Source: Eubacteriales bacterium (lineage in GTDB: Bacteria; Bacillota; Clostridia; Oscillospirales; JAAYXM01). From it: DNA of 64,000 nucleotides. This document shows positions 4,459-19,336 of the stretch, piece after piece; within the stretch, counting starts at the first letter, position 1; every line of letters starts with the position of its first letter. The position numbers were made by a program, and so were the translations under genes. Where the stretch lies: the NCBI GenBank assembly GCA_045580305.1, contig JAZNNQ010000027.1:5772-69771 (forward strand), read 5' to 3'. Below the pieces are notes generated by a model. It worked only from the letters and a program-made list of their open reading frames with translations. It had not been told where the DNA came from and made no database searches.

Positions 4459-4800
4459 ATGCCAGGAACACGCAAACTCGGCAGAGCAACCGATGCACGC
4501 CGCGCAATGCTCCGCGCTATGGTTACCTATCTGCTTGAGAATGGCAAAATTGAGACCACTCTTATGCGTGCGAAGGAAGTTCGCCCGTTAGTGGAGAAGA
4601 TGATCACACTTGGCAAGACCAACACTCTGCACAGCAGAAGACAGGCACTTGCATTTATTACCAAGAAGGATGTAGTCAAGAAGCTTTTTGACGAGATCGC
4701 ACCCAAGTATGCTGACCGTAACGGTGGTTACAGCCGTATCACCAAGCTCGGCCCGCGTCGTGGCGACTGCGCTGAAATGGCTATCATCGAGCTGCTCTAA
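4459..4800 (+). CDS. rplQ: 50S ribosomal protein L17
   Basis: Start refined to MPGTRKLGR (ATG 4459 after AAGGAGG). Ends ...[20 protein letters not shown]. Confidence 0.95.
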
Positions 4801-9467: not shown

Positions 9468-10682
9468 ATGAAAGAGATTTTAGGCGGTGTTTGTGCACCA
9501 CTCGGTTTTACAGCAGCGGGTATCCACTCGGGAATCCGCAAAAATAAAGACAGATTAGACCTTGCCCTTATCTCCTGCGAGCGTGAATGCAACGCGGCGG
9601 CAACCTTTACCACAAATCGTGTTAAGGCGGCGCCAGTGCAGCTTGATATGAAGAATATCAAAAGCGGCAAGATGCAGGCGGTAATCGTAAACAGCGGTAA
9701 CGCCAACGCCTGTGCACCCAACGGTATGGAGAATGCTGAAAAAATGTGCAAGATAGCGGCGGAGGCCCTCAATATCGCGCCCGAGCGCGTTTTCGTCTGC
9801 TCTACCGGCGTTATCGGCGTAGAGCTTGACACCACTCCGGTTGAAAAGGGTATGCCGAGCCTCGTGTCAGCTCTTTCCAAAGAAGGCGCTGAAAATGCGG
9901 CGCAGGCGATACTTACGACCGATCTTGTTAAAAAGGAGATCGCTTTAGAGGCAGAGATTGGCGGCAAGACCGTTAAAATCGGTGCGATCGCAAAGGGCTC
10001 GGGTATGATTCATCCCAATATGGGTACTATGCTCTGCTTTATCACAACGGATGCGGCTATAAGTTCTGAGCTTCTTCACGATGCACTCCTTGCAACGGTT
10101 AAAAGAACATTTAACCGCGTGAGCGTCGACGGTGATACCTCAACTAACGACACCGCGGTAGTAATGGCATCCGGCCTTGCGGGAAATGCTGAAATTACCG
10201 ATAAAAACGAGGATTATAACACCTTCTGCGCACTTCTCTATAAGGTTTGTGAGCATCTTGCCCGCGAGATGGCTCGTGACGGTGAGGGCGCGACACATCT
10301 TATCACCTGTGTGGTAAGTGGTGCAAAAGATGAAAAGAGCGCTGAAAAAATGGCGAAATCCGTTATTGGCTCGTCTCTTACAAAGGCGGCAATGTTCGGC
10401 GCAGATGCCAACTGGGGCCGCGTAATTTGTGCTATGGGCTACTCGGGCGAGGATTTCGATCCGGAAAAGGTTAAAATTTCTTTTAAGTCATCAGTCGGCG
10501 AGATTTTAGTTTGTGAAAACGGACGCGGTCTTGTTTTTGATGAAGATTTAGCTAAAAAGATCCTCACACAAGAGGAAGTTATCATTTGCGCCGAGCTTTG
10601 CGAGGGTCAGGCGTCAGCCACCGTTTGGGGTTGTGACCTTACCTACGATTATGTCAAAATTAACGGCGATTACAGAAGTTAG
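9468..10682 (+). CDS. argJ: bifunctional ornithine acetyltransferase / N-acetylglutamate synthase
   Basis: ATG 9468 has the better AGGAG spacing (7 nt). Autoprocessing site ...MLCFITTDA..., 404 aa. Confidence 0.93.
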   Translation: MKEILGGVCAPLGFTAAGIHSGIRKNKDRLDLALISCERECNAAATFTTNRVKAAPVQLDMKNIKSGKMQAVIVNSGNANACAPNGMENAEKMCKIAAEALNIAPERVFVCSTGVIGVELDTTPVEKGMPSLVSALSKEGAENAAQAILTTDLVKKEIALEAEIGGKTVKIGAIAKGSGMIHPNMGTMLCFITTDAAISSELLHDALLATVKRTFNRVSVDGDTSTNDTAVVMASGLAGNAEITDKNEDYNTFCALLYKVCEHLAREMARDGEGATHLITCVVSGAKDEKSAEKMAKSVIGSSLTKAAMFGADANWGRVICAMGYSGEDFDPEKVKISFKSSVGEILVCENGRGLVFDEDLAKKILTQEEVIICAELCEGQASATVWGCDLTYDYVKINGDYRS

Positions 10683-10694
10683 GAGGCTATTCCT

Positions 10695-11564
10695 ATGAAC
10701 AGTCATATCGAGCGCGCTAAAATACTTGTAGAGGCGCTTCCCTATATCCAGAAATACTATAACAAGACCGTTGTTATAAAATACGGCGGCAACGCTATGA
10801 TAAACGAGGAGTTAAAAGAGGCGGTAATCAACGATATTGTGCTTCTTTCCCTTGTCGGCGTTAAGGTTGTTGTCGTACACGGCGGTGGCCCCGAGATTAA
10901 CGCTATGTTCGAGCGCGTTGGTAAGGAGAGCAAGTTTGTAAACGGTCTCCGCTATACCGATGATGACTCTATGGACTTAGTCCAGATGGTACTCGCCGGC
11001 AAATTAAATAAGGAAATCGTTTCCATCATCAATAAGGCGGGCGGTCGCGCAATCGGCCTCTGCGGTATTGATGGCGGACTTTTCAAGGCTGAAAAGTTAA
11101 CTGAGGACGGCTTTGACTATGGTCGTGTAGGTGAGATCACCCAGGTTGACACCTCTGTTGTAAACGATGCCCTTAATTGCGGCTTTATCCCGGTTATCTC
11201 CACCGTTGCACAGGGCGAGGACGGAAGCTATAACATCAACGCTGACACTGCGGCTGCAAAGCTTGCGGCGGCGCTTGGTGCTGAAAAGGTTATGCTCCTT
11301 ACCGATATTGCAGGTCTTATGATGGATCCCAAGGATCCCACGACCCTTATCCGCGATATCAATGTTTCCGAGATTCCCCGTCTCCAGCGCGACGGCGTTA
11401 TCTCCGGCGGTATGATTCCCAAGATCGACTGCTGTGTTGAGGCGGTTCGTCAGGGCGTTGCCCAGGCGAATATTTTAGACGGAAGAGTTCCCCACTCCAT
11501 CCTTATGGAGATGCTGTCCGATGAGGGTATCGGCACTATGATCTACGGCGAAAGGTGTGTGTAA
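10695..11564 (+). CDS. argB: acetylglutamate kinase
   Basis: 289 aa, VIKYGGNAM...VVVHGGGP...NINAD.AA. Confidence 0.95.
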   Translation: MNSHIERAKILVEALPYIQKYYNKTVVIKYGGNAMINEELKEAVINDIVLLSLVGVKVVVVHGGGPEINAMFERVGKESKFVNGLRYTDDDSMDLVQMVLAGKLNKEIVSIINKAGGRAIGLCGIDGGLFKAEKLTEDGFDYGRVGEITQVDTSVVNDALNCGFIPVISTVAQGEDGSYNINADTAAAKLAAALGAEKVMLLTDIAGLMMDPKDPTTLIRDINVSEIPRLQRDGVISGGMIPKIDCCVEAVRQGVAQANILDGRVPHSILMEMLSDEGIGTMIYGERCV

Positions 11565-11570
11565 TTTTCG

Positions 11571-12758
11571 ATGAACACACAGGAAATAAAATGTAAAGAT
11601 TCCGCATTTATAATGCAGACCTACGGCCGCTTCCCCGTTGCGATAACACGCGGCGAGGGTGCTAAGGTCTACAGCCCGGAGGGCAAGGAATATATCGACT
11701 TTACAAGCGGTATCGGCGTTTGTAGCGTAGGCTATGGCAATAAAGAATGGGCAGACGCTATATACGCGCAGGCTTTAAAGCTCGGTCACATCTCAAACCT
11801 CTATTACACCGAACCGTCGGTAATTCTTGCGGAGCGTCTGTGTACTATTTCCGGTATGAGCAATGTGTTTTTCTCAAACTCCGGTGCTGAGAGTAACGAA
11901 GGCGCAATCAAACTTGCAAGAAAGTACAGCCGTGATAAATACGGTGATGGCAGAAGTAAGATTATCACTCTTTACCAGTCCTTCCACGGCAGAACGGTTA
12001 CCACTCTTGCCGCAACCGGCCAGGATGTGTTCCACACAAACTTTTTCCCTTTTACCGAGGGATTTGTCCATGTTCCGGCAAACGATTTTGAGGCACTTCT
12101 AAACGAGGTTGACGACACCACTTGCGCTATTATGATGGAGCTTGTTCAGGGCGAGGGCGGCGTATTACCGCTTGATCGTGAATTTGTAAATAAAGTTCGC
12201 ACACTTTGCGACGAAAAAGACATTCTCCTTATAATCGACGAGGTGCAGACCGGTATCGGTCGTACGGGCAAACTTTTCGCCTTTATGGAATACGGCATCC
12301 TGCCCGATGTTGCAACTACCGCAAAGGGTATTGCAGGCGGTCTTCCGATGGGTGCTGTATTTGCAAGTGAGAAGACAAAAAATGTACTTACTGCAGGTAC
12401 ACACGCTACCACATTTGGCGCAAACCCGATATGCGCTGCTGCGGCAAACAAAGTTCTCGATATTTTAGAGAGCGGAGTGCTTGCTGAAGTATCAAAAAAA
12501 GGTGCATACATCCGCGAGAAAATCGAGGCTATGAACCTTGATATTGTAAAGGGCACCCGTGGTTTGGGTATGATGATCGGCGTCATTGTCCCGGAGGGTG
12601 AGCATAAGGCGCTTGCCGCAAAATTAATTGATGCAGGACTTCTGTGTATCACAGCAGGTAAGGATGCAATTCGATTCTTACCACCCCTTACAATAACATA
12701 TGAAGAAATAGATCTTGGTCTTAAAATATTTGAAACCGTTATGAAGGAGGCGAAGTAG
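11571..12758 (+). CDS. argD: acetylornithine aminotransferase
   Basis: 395 aa class-III PLP aminotransferase (SGAESNEGA..., IDEVQTG.GRTG, TFGANP). Confidence 0.93.
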   Translation: MNTQEIKCKDSAFIMQTYGRFPVAITRGEGAKVYSPEGKEYIDFTSGIGVCSVGYGNKEWADAIYAQALKLGHISNLYYTEPSVILAERLCTISGMSNVFFSNSGAESNEGAIKLARKYSRDKYGDGRSKIITLYQSFHGRTVTTLAATGQDVFHTNFFPFTEGFVHVPANDFEALLNEVDDTTCAIMMELVQGEGGVLPLDREFVNKVRTLCDEKDILLIIDEVQTGIGRTGKLFAFMEYGILPDVATTAKGIAGGLPMGAVFASEKTKNVLTAGTHATTFGANPICAAAANKVLDILESGVLAEVSKKGAYIREKIEAMNLDIVKGTRGLGMMIGVIVPEGEHKALAAKLIDAGLLCITAGKDAIRFLPPLTITYEEIDLGLKIFETVMKEAK

Positions 12759-12761
12759 CCA

Positions 12762-13673
12762 ATGAAACACCTTTTAAAAATTACCGATTTATCCCGCGAG
12801 GACATCACCCACATTTTAGATGTGGCAGATCAGCTTAAATATAACCAGAAGCACGGAATTCCCCACAGACTTCTCGAGGGCAAGACCCTTGCTATGATTT
12901 TCCAGAAATCGTCCACCCGTACCCGTGTTTCCTTCGATGTTGGTATGTTCCAGCTTGGCGGCCACGCGATGTTCCTCTCTACTGCTGATATTCAGATGGG
13001 CAGAGGTGAGTCCATTCGTGACACCGCCCGCGTTCTTTCCCGCTATTGCGACGGTATTATGATCCGTACCTACGGTCAGGACGAGGTTGAGGAACTTGCT
13101 GAATATGCAACTATTCCGGTTATAAACGGCCTTACCGACTACTCTCATCCCTGCCAGGTTTTAGCTGACTTAATGACAATTCGTGAGCATCTTAAGACCT
13201 TAGAGGGACTCCATATGTGCTATATCGGCGACGGTAATAATATGGCAAACTCTCTTGTTGCCGGCGGTCTTATCACCGGTATGAAGGTAACCTGCGCTAC
13301 TCCCAAGGGCTATGAGCCGGACCCCCAGATACTTGATTTTGCAAAGCAGTACAATGATAAGTTTACCTGGTATGAGGATGTTATGGAAGCGGCAAAGGGC
13401 GCTGACATTCTTGTTACCGATGTTTGGGCAAGTATGGGTCAGGAGTCAGAGCGTGAAGAGCGCGCAAGAATTTTCAAAGGCTATCAGATAAATGATGCTG
13501 TAATGCAGGTGGCAAATAAGGGCGCAATCGTCCTCCACTGCTTACCCGCACATAAGGGCGAAGAGATCACCGAAGAGGTATTTGAAAAGTATGCAGACAG
13601 CATCTTCGATGAGGCTGAGAACAGACTCCATGCACAGAAAGCGGTTATGGCGATCTGCATGGGCGATAAGTAA
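12762..13673 (+). CDS. argF: ornithine carbamoyltransferase
   Basis: 303 aa, STRTR carbamoyl-phosphate motif, HPCQ.LAD, HCLP. Confidence 0.95.
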   Translation: MKHLLKITDLSREDITHILDVADQLKYNQKHGIPHRLLEGKTLAMIFQKSSTRTRVSFDVGMFQLGGHAMFLSTADIQMGRGESIRDTARVLSRYCDGIMIRTYGQDEVEELAEYATIPVINGLTDYSHPCQVLADLMTIREHLKTLEGLHMCYIGDGNNMANSLVAGGLITGMKVTCATPKGYEPDPQILDFAKQYNDKFTWYEDVMEAAKGADILVTDVWASMGQESEREERARIFKGYQINDAVMQVANKGAIVLHCLPAHKGEEITEEVFEKYADSIFDEAENRLHAQKAVMAICMGDK

Positions 13674-13680
13674 AATAAAT

Positions 13681-13716
13681 AAAATAAGAGCATCGGCTTA
13701 CCGATGCTCTTATTTT
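13681..13716. terminator. bidirectional intrinsic terminator (argF / XRE gene)
   Basis: Perfect 16-bp stem aaaataagagcatcgg/ccgatgctcttatttt with loop ctta. A-run on one side and T-run on the other. Confidence 0.85.
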
Positions 13717-13952
13717 ATTTCCTGTTCTAAATTGTTGAAAACTTCTGTAGAAAAGAATTCCCCCAAAGGTATTTCCAACCCATCGCAAAACTTTTTAATT
13801 GTGCGAATGGACACATCGCGGCGATTTTTATCCATCATACTGTATGCTGTTGAGGGCGTGACACCGGATATATTGGCAAGTTCATTAATGGTAATATTGC
13901 GCTCCTTGCACAACTCATAAAATCTATTTACAATTACATCCTTAAGATCCAT
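13710..13952 (-). CDS. XRE-family helix-turn-helix transcriptional regulator
   Basis: 80 aa, ...ITINELANISGVTPSTAYSMM...TIKKFCDGLEIPLGEFF is a classic HTH_3/XRE layout. GAGGTG RBS. Confidence 0.85.
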   Translation of the reverse strand: MDLKDVIVNRFYELCKERNITINELANISGVTPSTAYSMMDKNRRDVSIRTIKKFCDGLEIPLGEFFSTEVFNNLEQEIK

Positions 13953-13995
13953 TTTAAAACACCTCGTAAGGACATTTTAAAATAATTTACGATTA

Positions 13996-14007
13996 TGCGT
14001 ATACGCA
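13996..14007. promoter_or_regulatory. perfect 12-bp palindrome TGCGTATACGCA in the divergent XRE/Zn-ribbon intergenic region (candidate operator)
   Basis: Self-complementary, flanked by TTACG...CGTAA. A TATAAT (14035-14040) lies downstream on the + strand. Confidence 0.4.
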
Positions 14008-14078
14008 CTTGCGTAAACTGCCGAAAGATGTTAGTATAATTGTGAGGACTAAAAAATTCAAACGAAAGGTTGATAAAA

Positions 14079-14258
14079 ATGAAAAACGAAAAAGTAGTGT
14101 TGCCTAAAGGTAAGCTTTGCGCGATGTATTATTGCGGTGATTGTCGTCATTTAGATCGTAGTGACAGATCAAAAGATGGCGAGGCCGCTTACTGCAGACT
14201 TCACAGAACATACAGATGCTTAGATAAAGACTATGGTTGTTCAGACTGGTCAAGATAA
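14079..14258 (+). CDS. 59-aa Cys-rich, Zn-ribbon-like small protein (unknown family)
   Basis: ATG 14079 lies 9 nt after GAAAGG. Cys14/19/22/39/47/54 plus His24/42, giving C-x4-C-x2-C...C-x2-H-x4-C-x6-C. Confidence 0.55.
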   Translation: MKNEKVVLPKGKLCAMYYCGDCRHLDRSDRSKDGEAAYCRLHRTYRCLDKDYGCSDWSR

Positions 14259-14655
14259 GAAAATACATATAAAAGAAGAAATATTTGGTAAAATCTGCGC
14301 GTCAATAAGTAAAAACCGATATGAAACCGGCGGTATTATAGGAATCAACTCACGAGGGATAGTGTGTGCCTTTCAGTTGGATCATATAACAACGGCATAT
14401 CCATACGAATATCGGACAAATACACGGTTTTTAAATGATGTGATTGAAAGGTGGGCAAAAGTAGGTATAACCTTTGCCGGCATCGTCCATTCACATATGC
14501 ATAATAACTGTATATCTCGCGAGGATATAGAATATGCCCGAGAGATATTAAAGGCAAATGAATTTATGAAGGATATCATAATGGGCATTATAGACTTGTC
14601 CGGCGAGGCTGAATATATTGAGTGGTACTTAATCAATGCCGAAACGGTTATGTAG
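14233..14655 (+). CDS. JAB/MPN(JAMM)-like metalloprotease-domain protein
   Basis: 140 aa. E31 lies in YETGGIIG, then 55 aa later H86-S-H88-x6-S95-x2-D98 (IVHSHMHNNCISRED). Canonical JAMM is HxHx7Sx2D, so the spacer is one residue short. Overlaps the upstream ORF by 26 nt. Confidence 0.6.
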   Translation: MVVQTGQDKKIHIKEEIFGKICASISKNRYETGGIIGINSRGIVCAFQLDHITTAYPYEYRTNTRFLNDVIERWAKVGITFAGIVHSHMHNNCISREDIEYAREILKANEFMKDIIMGIIDLSGEAEYIEWYLINAETVM

Positions 14656-14754
14656 TAATAAAAATTAGGGCTAATCTGATAGCCATCCGCACAGAGAGTG
14701 GTGCATATGAAGAGATAATGGGCCAACGAAAGGAAGATAAGGATATGAAAAACA
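14650..14754 (+). repeat. 105-bp direct repeat, copy 1 (leader + RBS + first codons of the downstream gene)
   Basis: The first 62 nt are identical to 15290-15351. The remaining 43 nt have 4 mismatches. Confidence 0.95.
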
Positions 14755-15281
14755 CAGTTGGTGGTTATTGCGCAGGCATAGGAATTGTTTTATTTTTAGC
14801 GATTTGCGGTGTAGGTGAAAGTTGGACGGACACGGCTACAAGGGCTTTAGCGGCAATTGTAATTATTGTATCTACAATAATAGGAATCGCGATGGATATA
14901 AGTGAAGCAAAAACAAATGCGGTAGACAAAAAAGACTCTGCTGCCATAGCTGTTGCAGTTATGTTTATAGAACAGGGATACAAAATCGCGCAACGATACC
15001 GGATTTATGACCCATGCCTTTTAACCGTGCATAAACGAGAGGTTGGGTTCGAAGTTGTATTATACACATTGAGTCCATACTCATATATAGCTAATTTACG
15101 AACAAATGATTTATTTATTCCTCGCAACGATGATGGCGATGGTTGCTTAGTGAAGGTGTGCAATATGGATATTGAGTGCAGTTGGAGTAAGTTTGAGAAG
15201 GAAGTGTGGAATGAAGTCAAGTGTGAACATCCATCTTGGAATGTTCAGTATAACAATGGGCATGGCATAATAAAATTTTAG
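14745..15281 (+). CDS. membrane protein (2-3 N-terminal TM helices plus ~100-aa soluble C-terminal domain), unknown family
   Basis: Start refined to the ATG at 14745 behind GGAAGATAAGG. Hydrophobic runs GIGIVLFLAICGV, ALAAIVIIVSTIIGIA, AAIAVAVMFI. Confidence 0.6.
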   Translation: MKNTVGGYCAGIGIVLFLAICGVGESWTDTATRALAAIVIIVSTIIGIAMDISEAKTNAVDKKDSAAIAVAVMFIEQGYKIAQRYRIYDPCLLTVHKREVGFEVVLYTLSPYSYIANLRTNDLFIPRNDDGDGCLVKVCNMDIECSWSKFEKEVWNEVKCEHPSWNVQYNNGHGIIKF

Positions 15282-15289
15282 TCGATAAT

Positions 15290-15394
15290 ATGTAGTAATA
15301 AAAATTAGGGCTAATCTGATAGCCATCCGCACAGAGAGTGGTGCATATGAATAGATAACGTGCCAACGAAAGGAAGATAAGGGTATGAAAAACA
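15290..15394 (+). repeat. 105-bp direct repeat, copy 2
   Basis: See copy 1. Ends with the same ATGAAAAACA start context. Confidence 0.95.
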
Positions 15395-15498
15395 ATAAAG
15401 AAAGTCGCAGCAATGATCGCGCAATAAATGAGGCATGTGATGTAATAGACGAAGCAATAGAGATTGTAGAAAAACACGCAAATAGTGCTCACAAATAG
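15385..15498 (+). CDS. 37-codon ORF behind repeat copy 2 (MKNNKESRSNDRAINEACDVIDEAIEIVEKHANSAHK)
   Basis: Shares the RBS, ATG and MKN start with the gene at 14745. Not in the ORF track (<60 aa). Coding status uncertain. Confidence 0.3.
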   Translation: MKNNKESRSNDRAINEACDVIDEAIEIVEKHANSAHK

Positions 15499-15500
15499 GT

Positions 15501-15626
15501 ATGATTTCAAGAAGAATAGGTGAGTATTCAAGCTTCTGCATTTACATTGGTGTGGATGATATAGCACAAGCGAAGCAAATAGGAAGTCAAAAACGGAAAG
15601 AACTTCTGTTGGAAAATGCACCGTGA
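15501..15626 (+). pseudogene. 41-codon ORF, possibly the frameshifted N-terminal remnant of the following gene
   Basis: MISRRIGEYSSFCIYIGVDDIAQAKQIGSQKRKELLLENAP. Overlaps the ATG at 15616 by 11 nt in another frame. Confidence 0.2.
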
Positions 15627-16200
15627 TGGATATTTGAATTATGTGAAAAAACCTTGCCTTATATACGAGTCTGTGACAGATGTCGGAAACTTTAAAGAGC
15701 ATGACAAATGGGTGTGGGATGTCATTGTAGGATTTTATGAACCAGAGTGGAATCCATTTTATGACAAGAATGGATTTACCTACATTGTTCAAAGTAATCA
15801 ATATATATCTGCATCGGCTACGAAACAAGCAGAGAAAAAATATTATCCTAATTTAACATGCGAACCAGTAGATACGGTGGTAAAACAAATAGAAAAGGCA
15901 TACAAGATGGTTAAGAAATATAAAAGTTTGTTTGGACCAATAGCTATTGTTATGGGGAAGACTGATAAAAAAGAAACCTACACACTTAGTTTCTCTTCTT
16001 TATTTTTAAGTGAAAAAGATGTTAATTATATAGTCAAAAATGAAGGTTCTCGTGGATTTCGTATAGAGAAAAAGGGAGATTCCGAGTGGCTTTTTCATAC
16101 TGAACTTAGAGGAAATGAAAATCTTCAATCCGGCACATGGGAAAAAGTCGAAAAATTGCATCCAGATTGGGATATTATTGATTATGTTGTATTTTGTTAA
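15616..16200 (+). CDS. hypothetical 194-aa soluble protein, no recognisable motif
   Basis: Long ORF in an AT-rich context, followed by a strong terminator. The C-terminal W-EK-E..HP-W..Y string weakly resembles the C-terminus of the 14745 gene. Confidence 0.55.
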   Translation: MHRDGYLNYVKKPCLIYESVTDVGNFKEHDKWVWDVIVGFYEPEWNPFYDKNGFTYIVQSNQYISASATKQAEKKYYPNLTCEPVDTVVKQIEKAYKMVKKYKSLFGPIAIVMGKTDKKETYTLSFSSLFLSEKDVNYIVKNEGSRGFRIEKKGDSEWLFHTELRGNENLQSGTWEKVEKLHPDWDIIDYVVFC

Positions 16201-16218
16201 TAATATTATGATAGTTAA

Positions 16219-16258
16219 AGGAGCGACCAAAAATAATGGTCGCTCCTAAATTTTATTT
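16219..16258 (+). terminator. intrinsic terminator closing the islet
   Basis: aggagcgacc/ggtcgctcct 10-bp stem with a 9-nt loop, then a T-rich tail. Confidence 0.8.
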
Positions 16259-16390
16259 AAAACAAGAAAAACAAGCTATTATCAACAGAGACGATACCTA
16301 GCAAAAGTGAAACTTTTATATGTTTTGTAGTAGGATTAAAAGATAGATCTACAAATTGATAACTTTTCAAACAAGCATAGCTTGTAATCC

Positions 16391-19336
16391 TTATTCAAAT
16401 GTATACTTGTAAGTGTTTGTGCCGTGTACGCCGTAGAGGTTTCCGTAGTTGTCCTCAACATGGTACAGACCGGAATCGCGGATGAGAAGCTGTACATCCT
16501 TGGTCTTAATATCGATACTGTAAATGTTTGCGGTCTGACGGAAGTCGCTGGGAATAATACCGACATTATAAAGGTCAGATACATAAATCTTGGTACCGTC
16601 GTTTGAAAGGGTCATCTTATCGCCGTACCAGGTAGCACCGAAGTTATTGATGGAAACATTCTTCTCATAAATTACCTTGTTTGCCTTCGGATCGAAGATG
16701 AAGAGGCGGGTGCTGGTGGTTTCCTCGCAGTTTGCAAGACCCCAGACATTTCCGTCGGATGCGGTTGTCATAGCGGTAATTGCGGTAGCGCCCGGAATGA
16801 TTACACCATACTTCTCAAACTCCTTGGTAGCGAAGTTGTAGGAGAAGAGTTCGCACTCGGTAGCTCTTGCATCGGTGTTACTGCCCGGACGGATGGATGT
16901 ACCGAAGAATACCTTACGGTTTGCGTAAGCAATACCGGTAATGGTAAGGTCCGGTACGACAGAGTGAGTTGACCAGAAGGTATCGTCGTTCTTTTCCATA
17001 TCATAGAATGCGATTGCGCTGCCGTAGAAGCCCTGCTTAGGAATGGTAGCCACTACCATGGTCTTCTCCTCGGGGATACCGAGAAGGTTATAGGGACGGT
17101 CCTGTTTGGGATAGGTATCGTCATCTGCCTTAGAGCCCATATTCATTGCCAGATACGGGTTGCTTGCCGCTGTATCCCAAGGCTTTGTAGTGTCGTATTT
17201 AGAAATGTAGGAGTTGGGGTAACGGCCGAAGAAAACATAATCGCCGTAAACGCCCATACCCTCGACCTGACGGAGACCGTAGAGGTCCTCAAACTCGTCT
17301 GTGGTGGGGTTATAGCGACCGGTAGAAGCACCGATGTAGCCACCAATGTAGATGTTACCGTCATTTGCCTTGATTGTACAGTTACCGGTGGTGGGGTTAC
17401 CTTCGATAACAAGCTGAATGAAGCTTAACTTATTGGTTTCTAAGTTATAGCGCAGGAATGAGCCTAAATGGCTGTTAAGAGTAACAAATGACCAGCCGGG
17501 GAATTCCGGATCATCAAGCTCTAAGAAAATGAAGTTAAGAGGAGCGGTGCCCCATGCATCCGGCACACCCTCTGCAATGTAGGATATTTCGTCGGTGTCC
17601 ACATTGTATTTATAGAACTGAACATCGTCGAAGAAATATACAAAGTTTCCGACAGGAGAGAGAGCAGAAACTGCACGACCGTTCATATGAGTCTCGGTTA
17701 ATTTCTCGCCTGTTTCAAGATGTGTAAAGGTGATTTCCTCACCGGTTTTCGCATCGAGTACGAATAAGTTACTGCCAACCTCGCTGCGGCAGAAGAGCTT
17801 GCCGTTAACCAAGCGCATATCATAAACAACACCGATAGAGTCAACATATTTCTGGGGGAGAATGTTTACCTTCTCACCGGTCTTGGGGTTGAAACGATAT
17901 ACATATGCCTTGCCTTCACTGCTACGAGCAGCAACGAAAACAACATCGCTGTCCGGATCAGCAATGGAATAATACTGACCGTAGTCCTTGTCGCCTAATT
18001 TATATTCAGTGAACTTGTCGGTCTTGGGGTCTAAGCTGTAAATGGAATTTGAGGTAGCTTGCGCGCCCCAGATGATACCGTTTTCATCCTCGGTCATAAC
18101 AAGGGGAAGGGTTGAACCACCGGCAGGCGGGCCGATAAGCTCAAGTGTTTCGGTATCGACATTCCAACGATAAATAAGCGCCTCGCCATATGCGGCAACA
18201 TAGCAATCGCCGGAGGAGTGCACGAAGACGCCCCAGGCACCGTTTGATTTGCGTGTGTTACCCTTTTCATCAACAAGTTCAAGGGGAATACAAAATACCT
18301 GCTCACCGGTTTCCGGACGAATACCGATAAAGGAAGCGGGAGTACCGTCGTTTACCATATAAACGATGTTCTTGCCGTCCTTGTCCTTGCCACCGTCGCA
18401 GTACTTATTGTATACAACCTCGTTGGTGACGCCAAGATCGCGAGTGGTATAACCGCCACCGTTACGGCTTAAGTCATTCTTGACGAATTTACCTAAAAGT
18501 TCGGTTTTATCGTCTTTGTAAACGGTCTTTTCGGTACAGTTGCGGAGTACGATATTACCCTCGACCTTAACATTCTCAAGGTGAATTAAAGACCAAGCGT
18601 CAACCGCCTCAGAGAGGATAAGGTCGCCCTTGACGGTCATATTCTTTAAAGTTGTATCCTTTGCGGTAACGAGAAGGTTACCATCAACATCCTTGTCATA
18701 TGTACCGGACGCGGTGTCGGTAATCATACGGTCGAGAAGAGTAACAAATTCAGCGCGAGTAACATTTCCCTTTGGGGAAAGCTTTCCGTTTGCGCCTTTT
18801 GCATAGCCTAAATTGATCATAGCCGCGGTAGCGTCCTTTGCCCAGGAGCTAACCAGACCCTTGTCGGTAAAGCCATCGATAGAAGCGGTCTTGTCATATT
18901 GGATACAGAAAAGACGAGAGAGCACGGTGAAGGTTTCTTCACGGGTGATGCTGTCCTGAGGACGCATCTTCATATTGGCACCAAAGATAACCTGCATACG
19001 GCGAGCCGCAGCAATGTCTTCAGCATACCAAGCATCAGCAGGAACATCGGTGTATCCGGTTAAATCCTCAACTAATGTTGCGCCGAAGATGCGGCGAACA
19101 ATGGCGGAAAGCTGTGCTCTTGTGAGCCAAGCATCCGGATTAAGACAGTCACCGTTACCGTTGATCCAGCCGCTGTCTGCAGCACGGGTAAGGGAAGCCT
19201 CAGCCCAGTGGTCATCAATGTCGGCCCAGCTTTTCTCGGGTGCGGGGGAGATAACCATATCGTTTGCAAATGCAACAACGGAGCAGGAGCAAAGAATGGA
19301 TACGGTTAAGAGAAACGCTAAAAATCTGTTTTTCAT
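16391..19336 (-). CDS. SLH-domain surface protein with a large repeat (beta-propeller-like) C-terminal region
   Basis: 981 aa. Signal peptide MKNRFLAFLLTVSILCSCSVVAFA, then three N-terminal SLH repeats (W..A......G...G........TRA....L.R). About 12-14 short repeats of type hYhh....G.hY.h(D/N)..T.E follow. Confidence 0.8.
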   Translation of the reverse strand: MKNRFLAFLLTVSILCSCSVVAFANDMVISPAPEKSWADIDDHWAEASLTRAADSGWINGNGDCLNPDAWLTRAQLSAIVRRIFGATLVEDLTGYTDVPADAWYAEDIAAARRMQVIFGANMKMRPQDSITREETFTVLSRLFCIQYDKTASIDGFTDKGLVSSWAKDATAAMINLGYAKGANGKLSPKGNVTRAEFVTLLDRMITDTASGTYDKDVDGNLLVTAKDTTLKNMTVKGDLILSEAVDAWSLIHLENVKVEGNIVLRNCTEKTVYKDDKTELLGKFVKNDLSRNGGGYTTRDLGVTNEVVYNKYCDGGKDKDGKNIVYMVNDGTPASFIGIRPETGEQVFCIPLELVDEKGNTRKSNGAWGVFVHSSGDCYVAAYGEALIYRWNVDTETLELIGPPAGGSTLPLVMTEDENGIIWGAQATSNSIYSLDPKTDKFTEYKLGDKDYGQYYSIADPDSDVVFVAARSSEGKAYVYRFNPKTGEKVNILPQKYVDSIGVVYDMRLVNGKLFCRSEVGSNLFVLDAKTGEEITFTHLETGEKLTETHMNGRAVSALSPVGNFVYFFDDVQFYKYNVDTDEISYIAEGVPDAWGTAPLNFIFLELDDPEFPGWSFVTLNSHLGSFLRYNLETNKLSFIQLVIEGNPTTGNCTIKANDGNIYIGGYIGASTGRYNPTTDEFEDLYGLRQVEGMGVYGDYVFFGRYPNSYISKYDTTKPWDTAASNPYLAMNMGSKADDDTYPKQDRPYNLLGIPEEKTMVVATIPKQGFYGSAIAFYDMEKNDDTFWSTHSVVPDLTITGIAYANRKVFFGTSIRPGSNTDARATECELFSYNFATKEFEKYGVIIPGATAITAMTTASDGNVWGLANCEETTSTRLFIFDPKANKVIYEKNVSINNFGATWYGDKMTLSNDGTKIYVSDLYNVGIIPSDFRQTANIYSIDIKTKDVQLLIRDSGLYHVEDNYGNLYGVHGTNTYKYTFE

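Follow-up and report, generated by a model that had tools for sequence, protein, structure and literature searches.

The locus described here raises the question of why a noncoding leader of about one hundred nucleotides stands, nearly unchanged, in front of two consecutive genes. A near-identical noncoding piece beside divergent genes can reflect youth rather than constraint. In the window (the whole 64,000-nucleotide stretch of DNA that was analysed), a repeat search recovered direct repeats of 106 nt at positions 14649-14754 and 15289-15394, with 96% identity and a start-to-start spacing of 640. By direct count, 102 of the 106 bases are the same (96.2%) and the first 63 nt are free of any mismatch. 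The four differences, given as copy 1/copy 2, are G/T at 14712/15352, T/C at 14719/15359, G/T at 14721/15361, and A/G at 14743/15383. The search and our own count bear out the repeats and the four mismatches claimed in a preliminary description of this DNA, which had also stated that each copy starts at or just after the stop of the preceding gene. Copy 1 indeed begins inside the last codon and stop of a gene for a 140-aa JAB-like protein (ATG TAG, 14650-14655), and copy 2 begins 8 nt past the stop (15279-15281) of a 178-aa gene. Likewise as described, both copies hold a GGCTA-atctga-TAGCC hairpin, a 3-codon mini-ORF, and the Shine-Dalgarno sequence AAAGGAAG. Each ends in AAAGGAAG-N8-ATG AAA AAC, and the same ribosome binding site, ATG, and first three codons precede the bodies of two consecutive genes.

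The repeat is far beyond chance. Across the whole 1.9-Mb genome the leader has two matches only (E = 5e-49 and 1.3e-43), adjacent to one another and in the same orientation, and the next-best matches are scraps of 14-27 nt that resemble ribosome binding sites. No further copies were found in 60 relatives, or in viral contigs, phage records, and plasmid records. BLAST searches with the leader against all fetched loci, including 11 that carry the gene system described below, returned only words of 12-17 nt, and self-comparison of ten related loci revealed no leader-like internal repeat.

The repeat resides in an islet of 2.7 kb set between an argJ-argB-argD-argF operon and a convergent gene for an SLH surface protein. 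At this site the genome G003, from the same genus, holds no more than 279 nt (a gene for a 48-aa TM/membrane protein) between the equivalents of 13714 and 16398. Because homology with G003 stops at 13714 and resumes at 16398, the islet can be bounded at 13715-16397. Its features are as follows, with L012 denoting a syntenic metagenome contig.

13715-16397, no strand: low-GC accessory islet, 28-41% GC versus 48% in the flanks, bounded by the argF terminator on one side and the SLH stop codon on the other.
13710-13952, minus strand: XRE/Cro-type HTH regulator, divergent from the operon (Pfam HTH_26, 1.8e-9).
14079-14258, plus strand: 59-aa Cys-rich (zinc-ribbon-like) protein, from alignment and a weak DUF7140 match.
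14233-14655, plus strand: 140-aa JAB/MPN-like protein (a JAB-like protease), overlapping the Cys-rich gene; weak Prok-JAB match.
14649-14754, plus strand: leader copy 1, the native spacer between the JAB-like gene and the TM-X gene, with the Shine-Dalgarno sequence AAAGGAAG, ATG, and codons 2-3; collinear with the single leader of L012.
14745-15281, plus strand: cassette 1, a 178-aa protein in which residues 3-56 form two N-terminal TM helices and domain X_a comes next, from hydropathy, domain alignment, and HMM.
15289-15394, plus strand: leader copy 2, the secondary one, sharing 102/106 bases with copy 1 and without a counterpart in L012 or the other related loci.
15385-15498, plus strand: 37-codon ORF that opens at the ATG of leader copy 2 and encodes a linker plus the first X_b helix.
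15501-15626, plus strand: 41-codon ORF in a different frame, which probably encodes the central part of X_b.
15616-16200, plus strand: 194-aa ORF, the end of X_b and an intact X_c; 52% identity to the protein P0005.
16219-16247, plus strand: intrinsic terminator closing the islet operon, an 11-bp stem with 7 GC pairs and then a T-run.

Together these genes represent a four-gene islet module, XRE / Cys-rich - JAB - TM-X, that is rare and unannotated. The Cys-rich gene is the most conserved of the system, and a literature search on DUF7140 found no papers. Homologues of the JAB-like protein number two among 5.8 billion clustered proteins, with 76% and 48% identity, and this protein used alone as a query against genome contigs yielded no related loci. 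An alignment of the Cys-rich protein, used in the same way, located seven genome loci, one metagenome-contig locus, and no viral contigs. Eleven loci beyond this genome were found, of which nine are distinct (L012-L014 represent one arrangement). The eight anchored by the Cys-rich gene were fetched besides L015 and L016, and all of these come from uncultured gut Clostridia. The XRE gene is likewise divergent in L012, L018, L020, L021, L022, and L024, and also in L019, whose contig ends shortly after the JAB gene.

The most informative comparison is with the Logan contigs L012-L014, which carry the JAB homologue of 76% identity and are syntenic with the window. Their order is argB-argD-argF, the HTH gene on the minus strand, the Cys-rich gene, the JAB gene, a gene for a 203-aa TM protein, a second argF 3' end with its terminator, two small minus-strand genes, and SLH. 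By BLASTN, the window and L012 are collinear over 10644-14904 at 85.5% identity, then break abruptly and resume at 16394. This pattern agrees with an earlier suggestion that a recombination junction is involved, in that the tail of the islet is mosaic. The collinear span includes the leader and extends across the TM-coding portion of the gene that follows. Because L012 has a single leader followed by homologous TM-coding sequence, copy 1 is the native leader and copy 2 is secondary. A second leader is absent at the orthologous position in L012, L013, and L014 alike, and G003 has no islet at this site.

Identity between the window and L012 differs along the collinear span.

argF: 87.5%.
HTH: 87.7%.
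HTH-Cys control region: 89.1%.
Cys-rich gene: 85.8%.
JAB gene: 81.8%.
TM part: 90.0%.
Leader, from stop to ATG: 60.7%, or 66% over aligned columns.

The leader is thus the least conserved segment of the locus between these two lineages, and its paralogous copies are far more alike (96.2%) than the orthologous ones (61-66%). High identity within one genome, combined with the fastest evolution in the locus, would appear to be the signature of a recent copy or conversion rather than of purifying selection. On this evidence the likeness of the two leaders seems to stem from the young age of the copy and not from constraint on the sequence. When the four differences are polarised against L012, copy 2 carries the derived base at three and copy 1 at one, a ratio that would be as expected for a copy that has begun drifting. 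All four lie within the last 43 nt (P ~0.025 under random placement). This clustering would fit a conversion tract, slight constraint, or chance, and extra constraint or recent gene conversion could have acted on the first 63 nt.

In L015, L017, L018, L020, L021, L022, L023, and L024, the JAB gene and the third gene are separated by 18-42 nt or overlap by 4 nt. The corresponding JAB-to-TM-X spacer is 89 nt in the window and 81 nt in L012. Because the other members have such short spacers or an overlap, the long spacer is peculiar to the window/L012 lineage. This extra length is an observation that counts against regarding the leader simply as a young copy.

The genes downstream of the two leaders had been described as unrelated at the DNA level. 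That description holds, but their products are related, since both carry the same domain of about 120 aa, here called domain X (E = 0.002 in the pairwise comparison and 1e-31 to 1e-33 with the profile). An N-terminal helix (..IE.aYk..) opens the domain, and the motif W-x3-h-x3-[HY]P-x-W closes it. The same domain makes up the C-terminal part of the 203-aa protein of L012 and of the third genes of L018, L020, L021, and L024. An exhaustive HMMER search found about 46 clusters among 1.84 billion representatives, with the architectures TM-X, X-X (P0005, P0010, P0036), and TM-X-X (P0013). P0005 is a protein of 254 aa with an internal tandem of domain X, and in L016 its gene lies directly upstream of the Cys-rich gene of the same system. 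Because X-X and TM-X-X proteins recur in P0005/P0010, P0036, and P0013, tandem X modules are a theme of the family.

The 194-aa protein is an orthologue of the C-terminal two thirds of P0005, at 52% identity. Its X_c domain is 68% identical to domain 2 of a distant X-X protein, and only ~22% identical to X_a. From these alignments, the two cassettes are old paralogues of one rare family that is linked functionally to the Cys-rich/JAB pair. Tandem duplication of a complete leader-plus-gene unit followed by divergence was considered and rejected, because the leader copy is young whereas the paralogous genes are old.

The second cassette appears to be partly decayed. In the frame opened by copy 2, the stretch 15385-16200 is interrupted by five stop codons, all of them between codons 38 and 66. 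In several family members, the linker and first X helix are matched at the expected position by the 37-codon ORF. The 41-codon ORF starts 2 nt past the stop of that ORF and overlaps the start of the 194-codon ORF by 11 nt. When the three frames are joined conceptually, the product covers HMM positions 4-117 of 126 (11.5 bits) and aligns with the complete X domain of P0008, a match that is weak but collinear. The two frame changes fall in regions that hold A-runs. We read this arrangement as indicating that copy 2 served, or might still serve, a gene of ~270 codons for MKN-X_b-X_c, in which X_b is now split by the two frame changes. Both the tandem junction and the frame changes are known from a single MAG assembly, and the latter are either mutations or assembly errors.

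Given these results, the repeat is probably a lineage-specific and fairly recent segmental copy of a translation-initiation region within a mosaic locus of paralogues. The leader would comprise the spacer that separates the JAB-like gene from the membrane-anchored domain X gene, together with the translation-initiation region there. The piece of 106 nt, from the last JAB codon to codon 3 of the TM-X gene, would have been copied once by recombination, in this lineage only, and would have landed 8 nt behind the TM-X gene and before a two-domain X-X gene of the same family. The piece might have been joined illegitimately or through microhomology at ...ATGAAAAACA, or a block duplicated beforehand might have been imported from a different variant of the islet. 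The right edge of the copy coincides with ATGAAAAACA, and a microhomology join at a pre-existing MKN start is plausible because MKN starts are common in this genome, as in the Cys-rich gene (MKNEK) and the SLH gene (MKNRF).

The surrounding tail is consistent with such events. The stretch 14905-16393, which holds copy 2, has no homology to L012, and the 48-aa gene kept in both G003 and L012 is lost from the window. Because the tail lacks an L012 counterpart and the small gene is gone, the tail must have been installed by replacement through recombination, with its left end at the TM/X boundary. No integrase, transposase, or attC-like structure was found in the islet or its flanks. Once in place, copy 2 would equip the X-X gene with its own Shine-Dalgarno sequence and start codon within the shared polycistronic mRNA. 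Expression of the 194-aa ORF would then depend on re-initiation or coupling across the 2-nt gap and 11-nt overlap; alternatively, the gene may be decaying. A promoter scan returned 11 sites where 11.3 were expected, none of them within the leader, and the GATAAT at 14714, which has no -35 element, is GATAAC in copy 2.

A different account would make the leader a cis-acting RNA element held by selection, either a hairpin pair for intercistronic processing or stability or a translational control device. The perfect identity of the first 63 nt, with every mismatch in the 3' 43 nt, and the unusually long spacer of this lineage would suit such an element. Evidence in its favour also comes from two small hairpins (5 and 4 bp), of which 8 of 9 pairs are kept in L012, three by double (compensatory) changes. 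Controls favour the drawn register of these hairpins, since only 23 of 500 shuffles reach it and slid versions pair in 15-52% of cells versus 96%. However, this covariation comes from one independent comparator, the hairpins are weak in L012, and the minimum-energy fold of L012 is a different structure. Folding energies of both copies and of a 131-nt context are no better than those of shuffled sequences (z = -0.36, -0.69, -0.79). The mini-ORF is absent in L012, where an in-frame ATG extends the downstream gene. Furthermore, the element is absent from that position in the eight other system members, and no segment of the locus is less similar to L012 than the leader. A selected RNA element is distinctly doubtful on this balance, and the proposal of a conserved riboregulator or 5'-UTR structure cannot be upheld.

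The preliminary description had recognised no known riboswitch or attC site in the sequence and asked for a check against Rfam. A scan of 13500-16500 with Rfam 15 at E up to 10 gave no match inside 14640-14760 or 15280-15400. The best match, a traJ-II hit whose 33 bits fall short of the gathering score, corresponds to the hairpin of the argF terminator. The idea of an attC-like site fails as well, with no integrase and no attC-type palindrome present. The leader cannot be classed as a riboswitch or an attC site, nor is it a dispersed element. Overall, the results essentially match an outcome that the preliminary description had set against its own reading, namely that the repeat would prove to be a recent duplication in place, lacking both further copies and conserved structure, except for the three compensatory changes seen against a single comparator. 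A coding role for the leader was also rejected. An extension of the 178-aa ORF through copy 1, from a start at 14622, is stopped in copy 2 and absent in L012.

Recombination might also have a more regular part than a single copying event. The leader could be a recurrent recombination substrate, a homology 'adaptor' by which X-domain cassettes are added or swapped between islet variants, with older or extra cassettes left downstream like the orphan modules of polymorphic toxin, CDI, or Rhs loci. The mosaic tail from 14905, wholly unlike L012, would fit this idea, as would the paralogous cassettes, the partial decay of the second, and the TM protein whose C-terminal X domain differs between the window and L012 behind a conserved N-terminus. 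Yet the only observable breakpoint (14904) lies at the TM/X boundary and not in the leader, and no other locus has a leader repeat or more than one downstream cassette. A leader that diverges this fast (61-66% identity to L012) would also make a poor long-term homology anchor, and no toxin or immunity domain is recognised, so a recurrent substrate of this kind must be considered unlikely. It is improbable, too, that the leader is a portable 'expression adaptor', in which the hairpins process or stabilise RNA and the 106-nt unit plugs X cassettes into the Cys-rich/JAB operon. If true, however, the window would capture a cassette array at its very beginning, in an XRE / Zn-ribbon - JAB - TM-X system that is as yet uncharacterised. 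Finally, an assembler might have joined strain variants at a shared leader and so made the tandem or the frame changes, which must be borne in mind for a MAG of 67 contigs with 4% estimated contamination and with both frame changes in A-run regions. Such an artefact is highly improbable. The junction of cassette 1 end, 8 nt, and leader start cannot come from repeat collapse and must exist in the reads, the copies were resolved as distinct by their four differences, and the 140-kb contig is collinear with relatives on both sides.

A recent segmental copy, the preferred interpretation, has a counterpart among known systems in the 'upstream homology box' in front of Borrelia erp genes, a copied intergenic spacer before divergent paralogues. 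In both cases a near-identical upstream noncoding piece precedes far more divergent coding sequences, and recent copying or conversion is the common theme. Here, however, there are two copies, they carry a Shine-Dalgarno sequence and start codon without a recognisable promoter, and they lie inside an operon rather than in separate transcription units.

Polymorphic toxin loci offer another comparison, since the cdiA-CT/cdiI orphans of CDI systems and the tips of Rhs proteins are orphan or displaced C-terminal cassettes. The islet resembles them in having a conserved N-terminal part, a swapped C-terminal domain, and then a partly decayed module of the same family in a mosaic tail. The TM part is 90% identical up to 14904, after which DNA homology ends and X has diverged. 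The extra module is also preceded by a stretch that matches the sequence upstream of the main module. In contrast to those loci, the repeat is a noncoding leader plus three codons, and a single extra cassette is present with no array elsewhere. Copy 2 homology ends after codon 3 (MKN), with no TM-coding remnant of the type by which an orphan keeps a conserved coding fragment. No toxin domain with a cognate immunity gene was recognised, domain X being without a family in Pfam, PADLOC, PHROG, or NCBIfam. The likeness to orphan cassettes that had been pointed out earlier is therefore a loose one, which stands for the partly decayed second cassette and mosaic tail, and not for toxin or immunity domains or for a conserved coding remnant.

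Integron cassettes share with this locus the arrangement of promoterless tandem genes, each adjoining a repeated element of ~100 nt. Here the element lies upstream, includes the ribosome binding site and start codon, and has only two copies. No IntI-type tyrosine recombinase with attI was found among the ORFs of the islet and flanks, which are arg, HTH, Cys-rich, JAB, X-domain, and SLH genes. Imperfect inverted repeats of the attC type were also absent from the leader, which has only the 5-bp and 4-bp hairpins and no long inverted repeat. The cis-regulatory leaders and riboswitches of Rfam are similar in their 5' leader position and small hairpins, but they differ in that this leader has no model match, gives no thermodynamic signal, and is not conserved across the gene family.

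The duplicated leader itself is likely an ordinary by-product of recombination in a mosaic accessory locus, and as such it matters little. The repeat is of less interest than the XRE / Cys-rich - JAB - TM-X module around it and the unmatched domain X of that module. If the module is a defence or addiction system, the variable X tail and the extra cassette might be under diversifying pressure. A search with Foldseek found no fold match for domain X at E <0.001 in PDB or BFVD. Its resemblance to alpha-beta-beta-alpha-beta-beta-alpha folds such as LAGLIDADG halves is topological and not significant (TM 0.2-0.3). In an AlphaFold2 model of the 194-aa ORF, residues ~80-194 (X_c) have pLDDT >80, mostly >90, and residues 1-68 are <50. 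The predicted topology of X_c is alpha-beta-beta-alpha-beta-beta-alpha-beta. In the JAB-like protein, an alignment reveals that residues E31, H86, H88, S95, and D98 are invariant among three homologues.

The proteins encoded by the islet include a domain of about 120 residues, termed domain X, for which database comparisons yield few relatives. Two copies are considered here.
14919-15278, domain X_a, in the 178-aa transmembrane (TM) protein
15831-16197, domain X_c, in the 194-aa open reading frame

The family is rare: among 1.84 billion representatives its members form 46 clusters (50% identity), and it has no match in Pfam, PADLOC, PHROG or NCBIfam. A confident AF2 model predicts the order alpha-beta-beta-alpha-beta-beta-alpha-beta, for which Foldseek returned no match at E below 0.001; the sole resemblance, to half domains of the LAGLIDADG type, is not significant. 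In some family members, such as P0013 (305 aa) and P0043 (354 aa), a TM-X portion of the type found in the syntenic sister locus, L012, is joined through a linker to a further domain X in a single polypeptide, and therefore the split TM-X and X-X arrangement of the window has fused counterparts elsewhere.

Other loci carrying the module differ in the gene that follows the JAB-like gene, which is not TM-X in three cases.
L017:4229-4951, gene for a 240-aa multi-TM protein
L022:4264-4692, gene for a 142-aa soluble protein
L023:5624-6394, gene for a 256-aa protein
The module is therefore interchangeable in its third position, where these loci carry genes other than TM-X.

Two further features concern the JAB-like gene itself.
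14233-14258, overlap of the Cys-rich and JAB-like genes
14488-14526, JAMM-like motif (JAB residues 86-98)
In all loci (the window, L012, L015 and L017-L024), the JAB frame opens within the Cys-rich gene, at its 3' end, with an overlap of about 23-26 nt; in several loci, whose called products are 148-181 aa long, it is open far upstream. This overlap is retained although the proteins are just 42-50% identical, a conservation suggestive of either translational coupling or a programmed frameshift that would fuse both products. The motif reads H-S-H-x6-S-x2-D, one residue short of the canonical H-x-H-x7-S-x2-D; residues E31, H86, H88, S95 and D98 are invariant in an alignment (n=3 homologues).

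The remaining features lie at the islet boundaries.
L012:2997-3030 and 4720-4753, argF 3'-end repeat (window equivalent 13641-13711)
13677-13720, perfect hairpin with 20-bp arms between argF and the HTH gene, a bidirectional terminator
L035:827-973 (genome G003) and L012:5302-5448, gene for a 48-aa hydrophobic protein, in the interval from argF to the SLH gene

In L012, this 34-nt direct repeat (copies 91% identical) flanks the islet, and a terminator hairpin follows each copy; the window has the left copy only. The repeats look like an attL/attR scar of insertion into the end of argF, despite which the islet encodes no integrase gene. The inner stem of the window hairpin carries compensatory changes relative to the proximal L012 terminator and is similar to the distal one. 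A sub-threshold Rfam match of this hairpin to traJ-II (33 bits) is likely due to chance. The window lacks the 48-aa gene carried by G003 and L012, which was apparently deleted during replacement of the islet tail.
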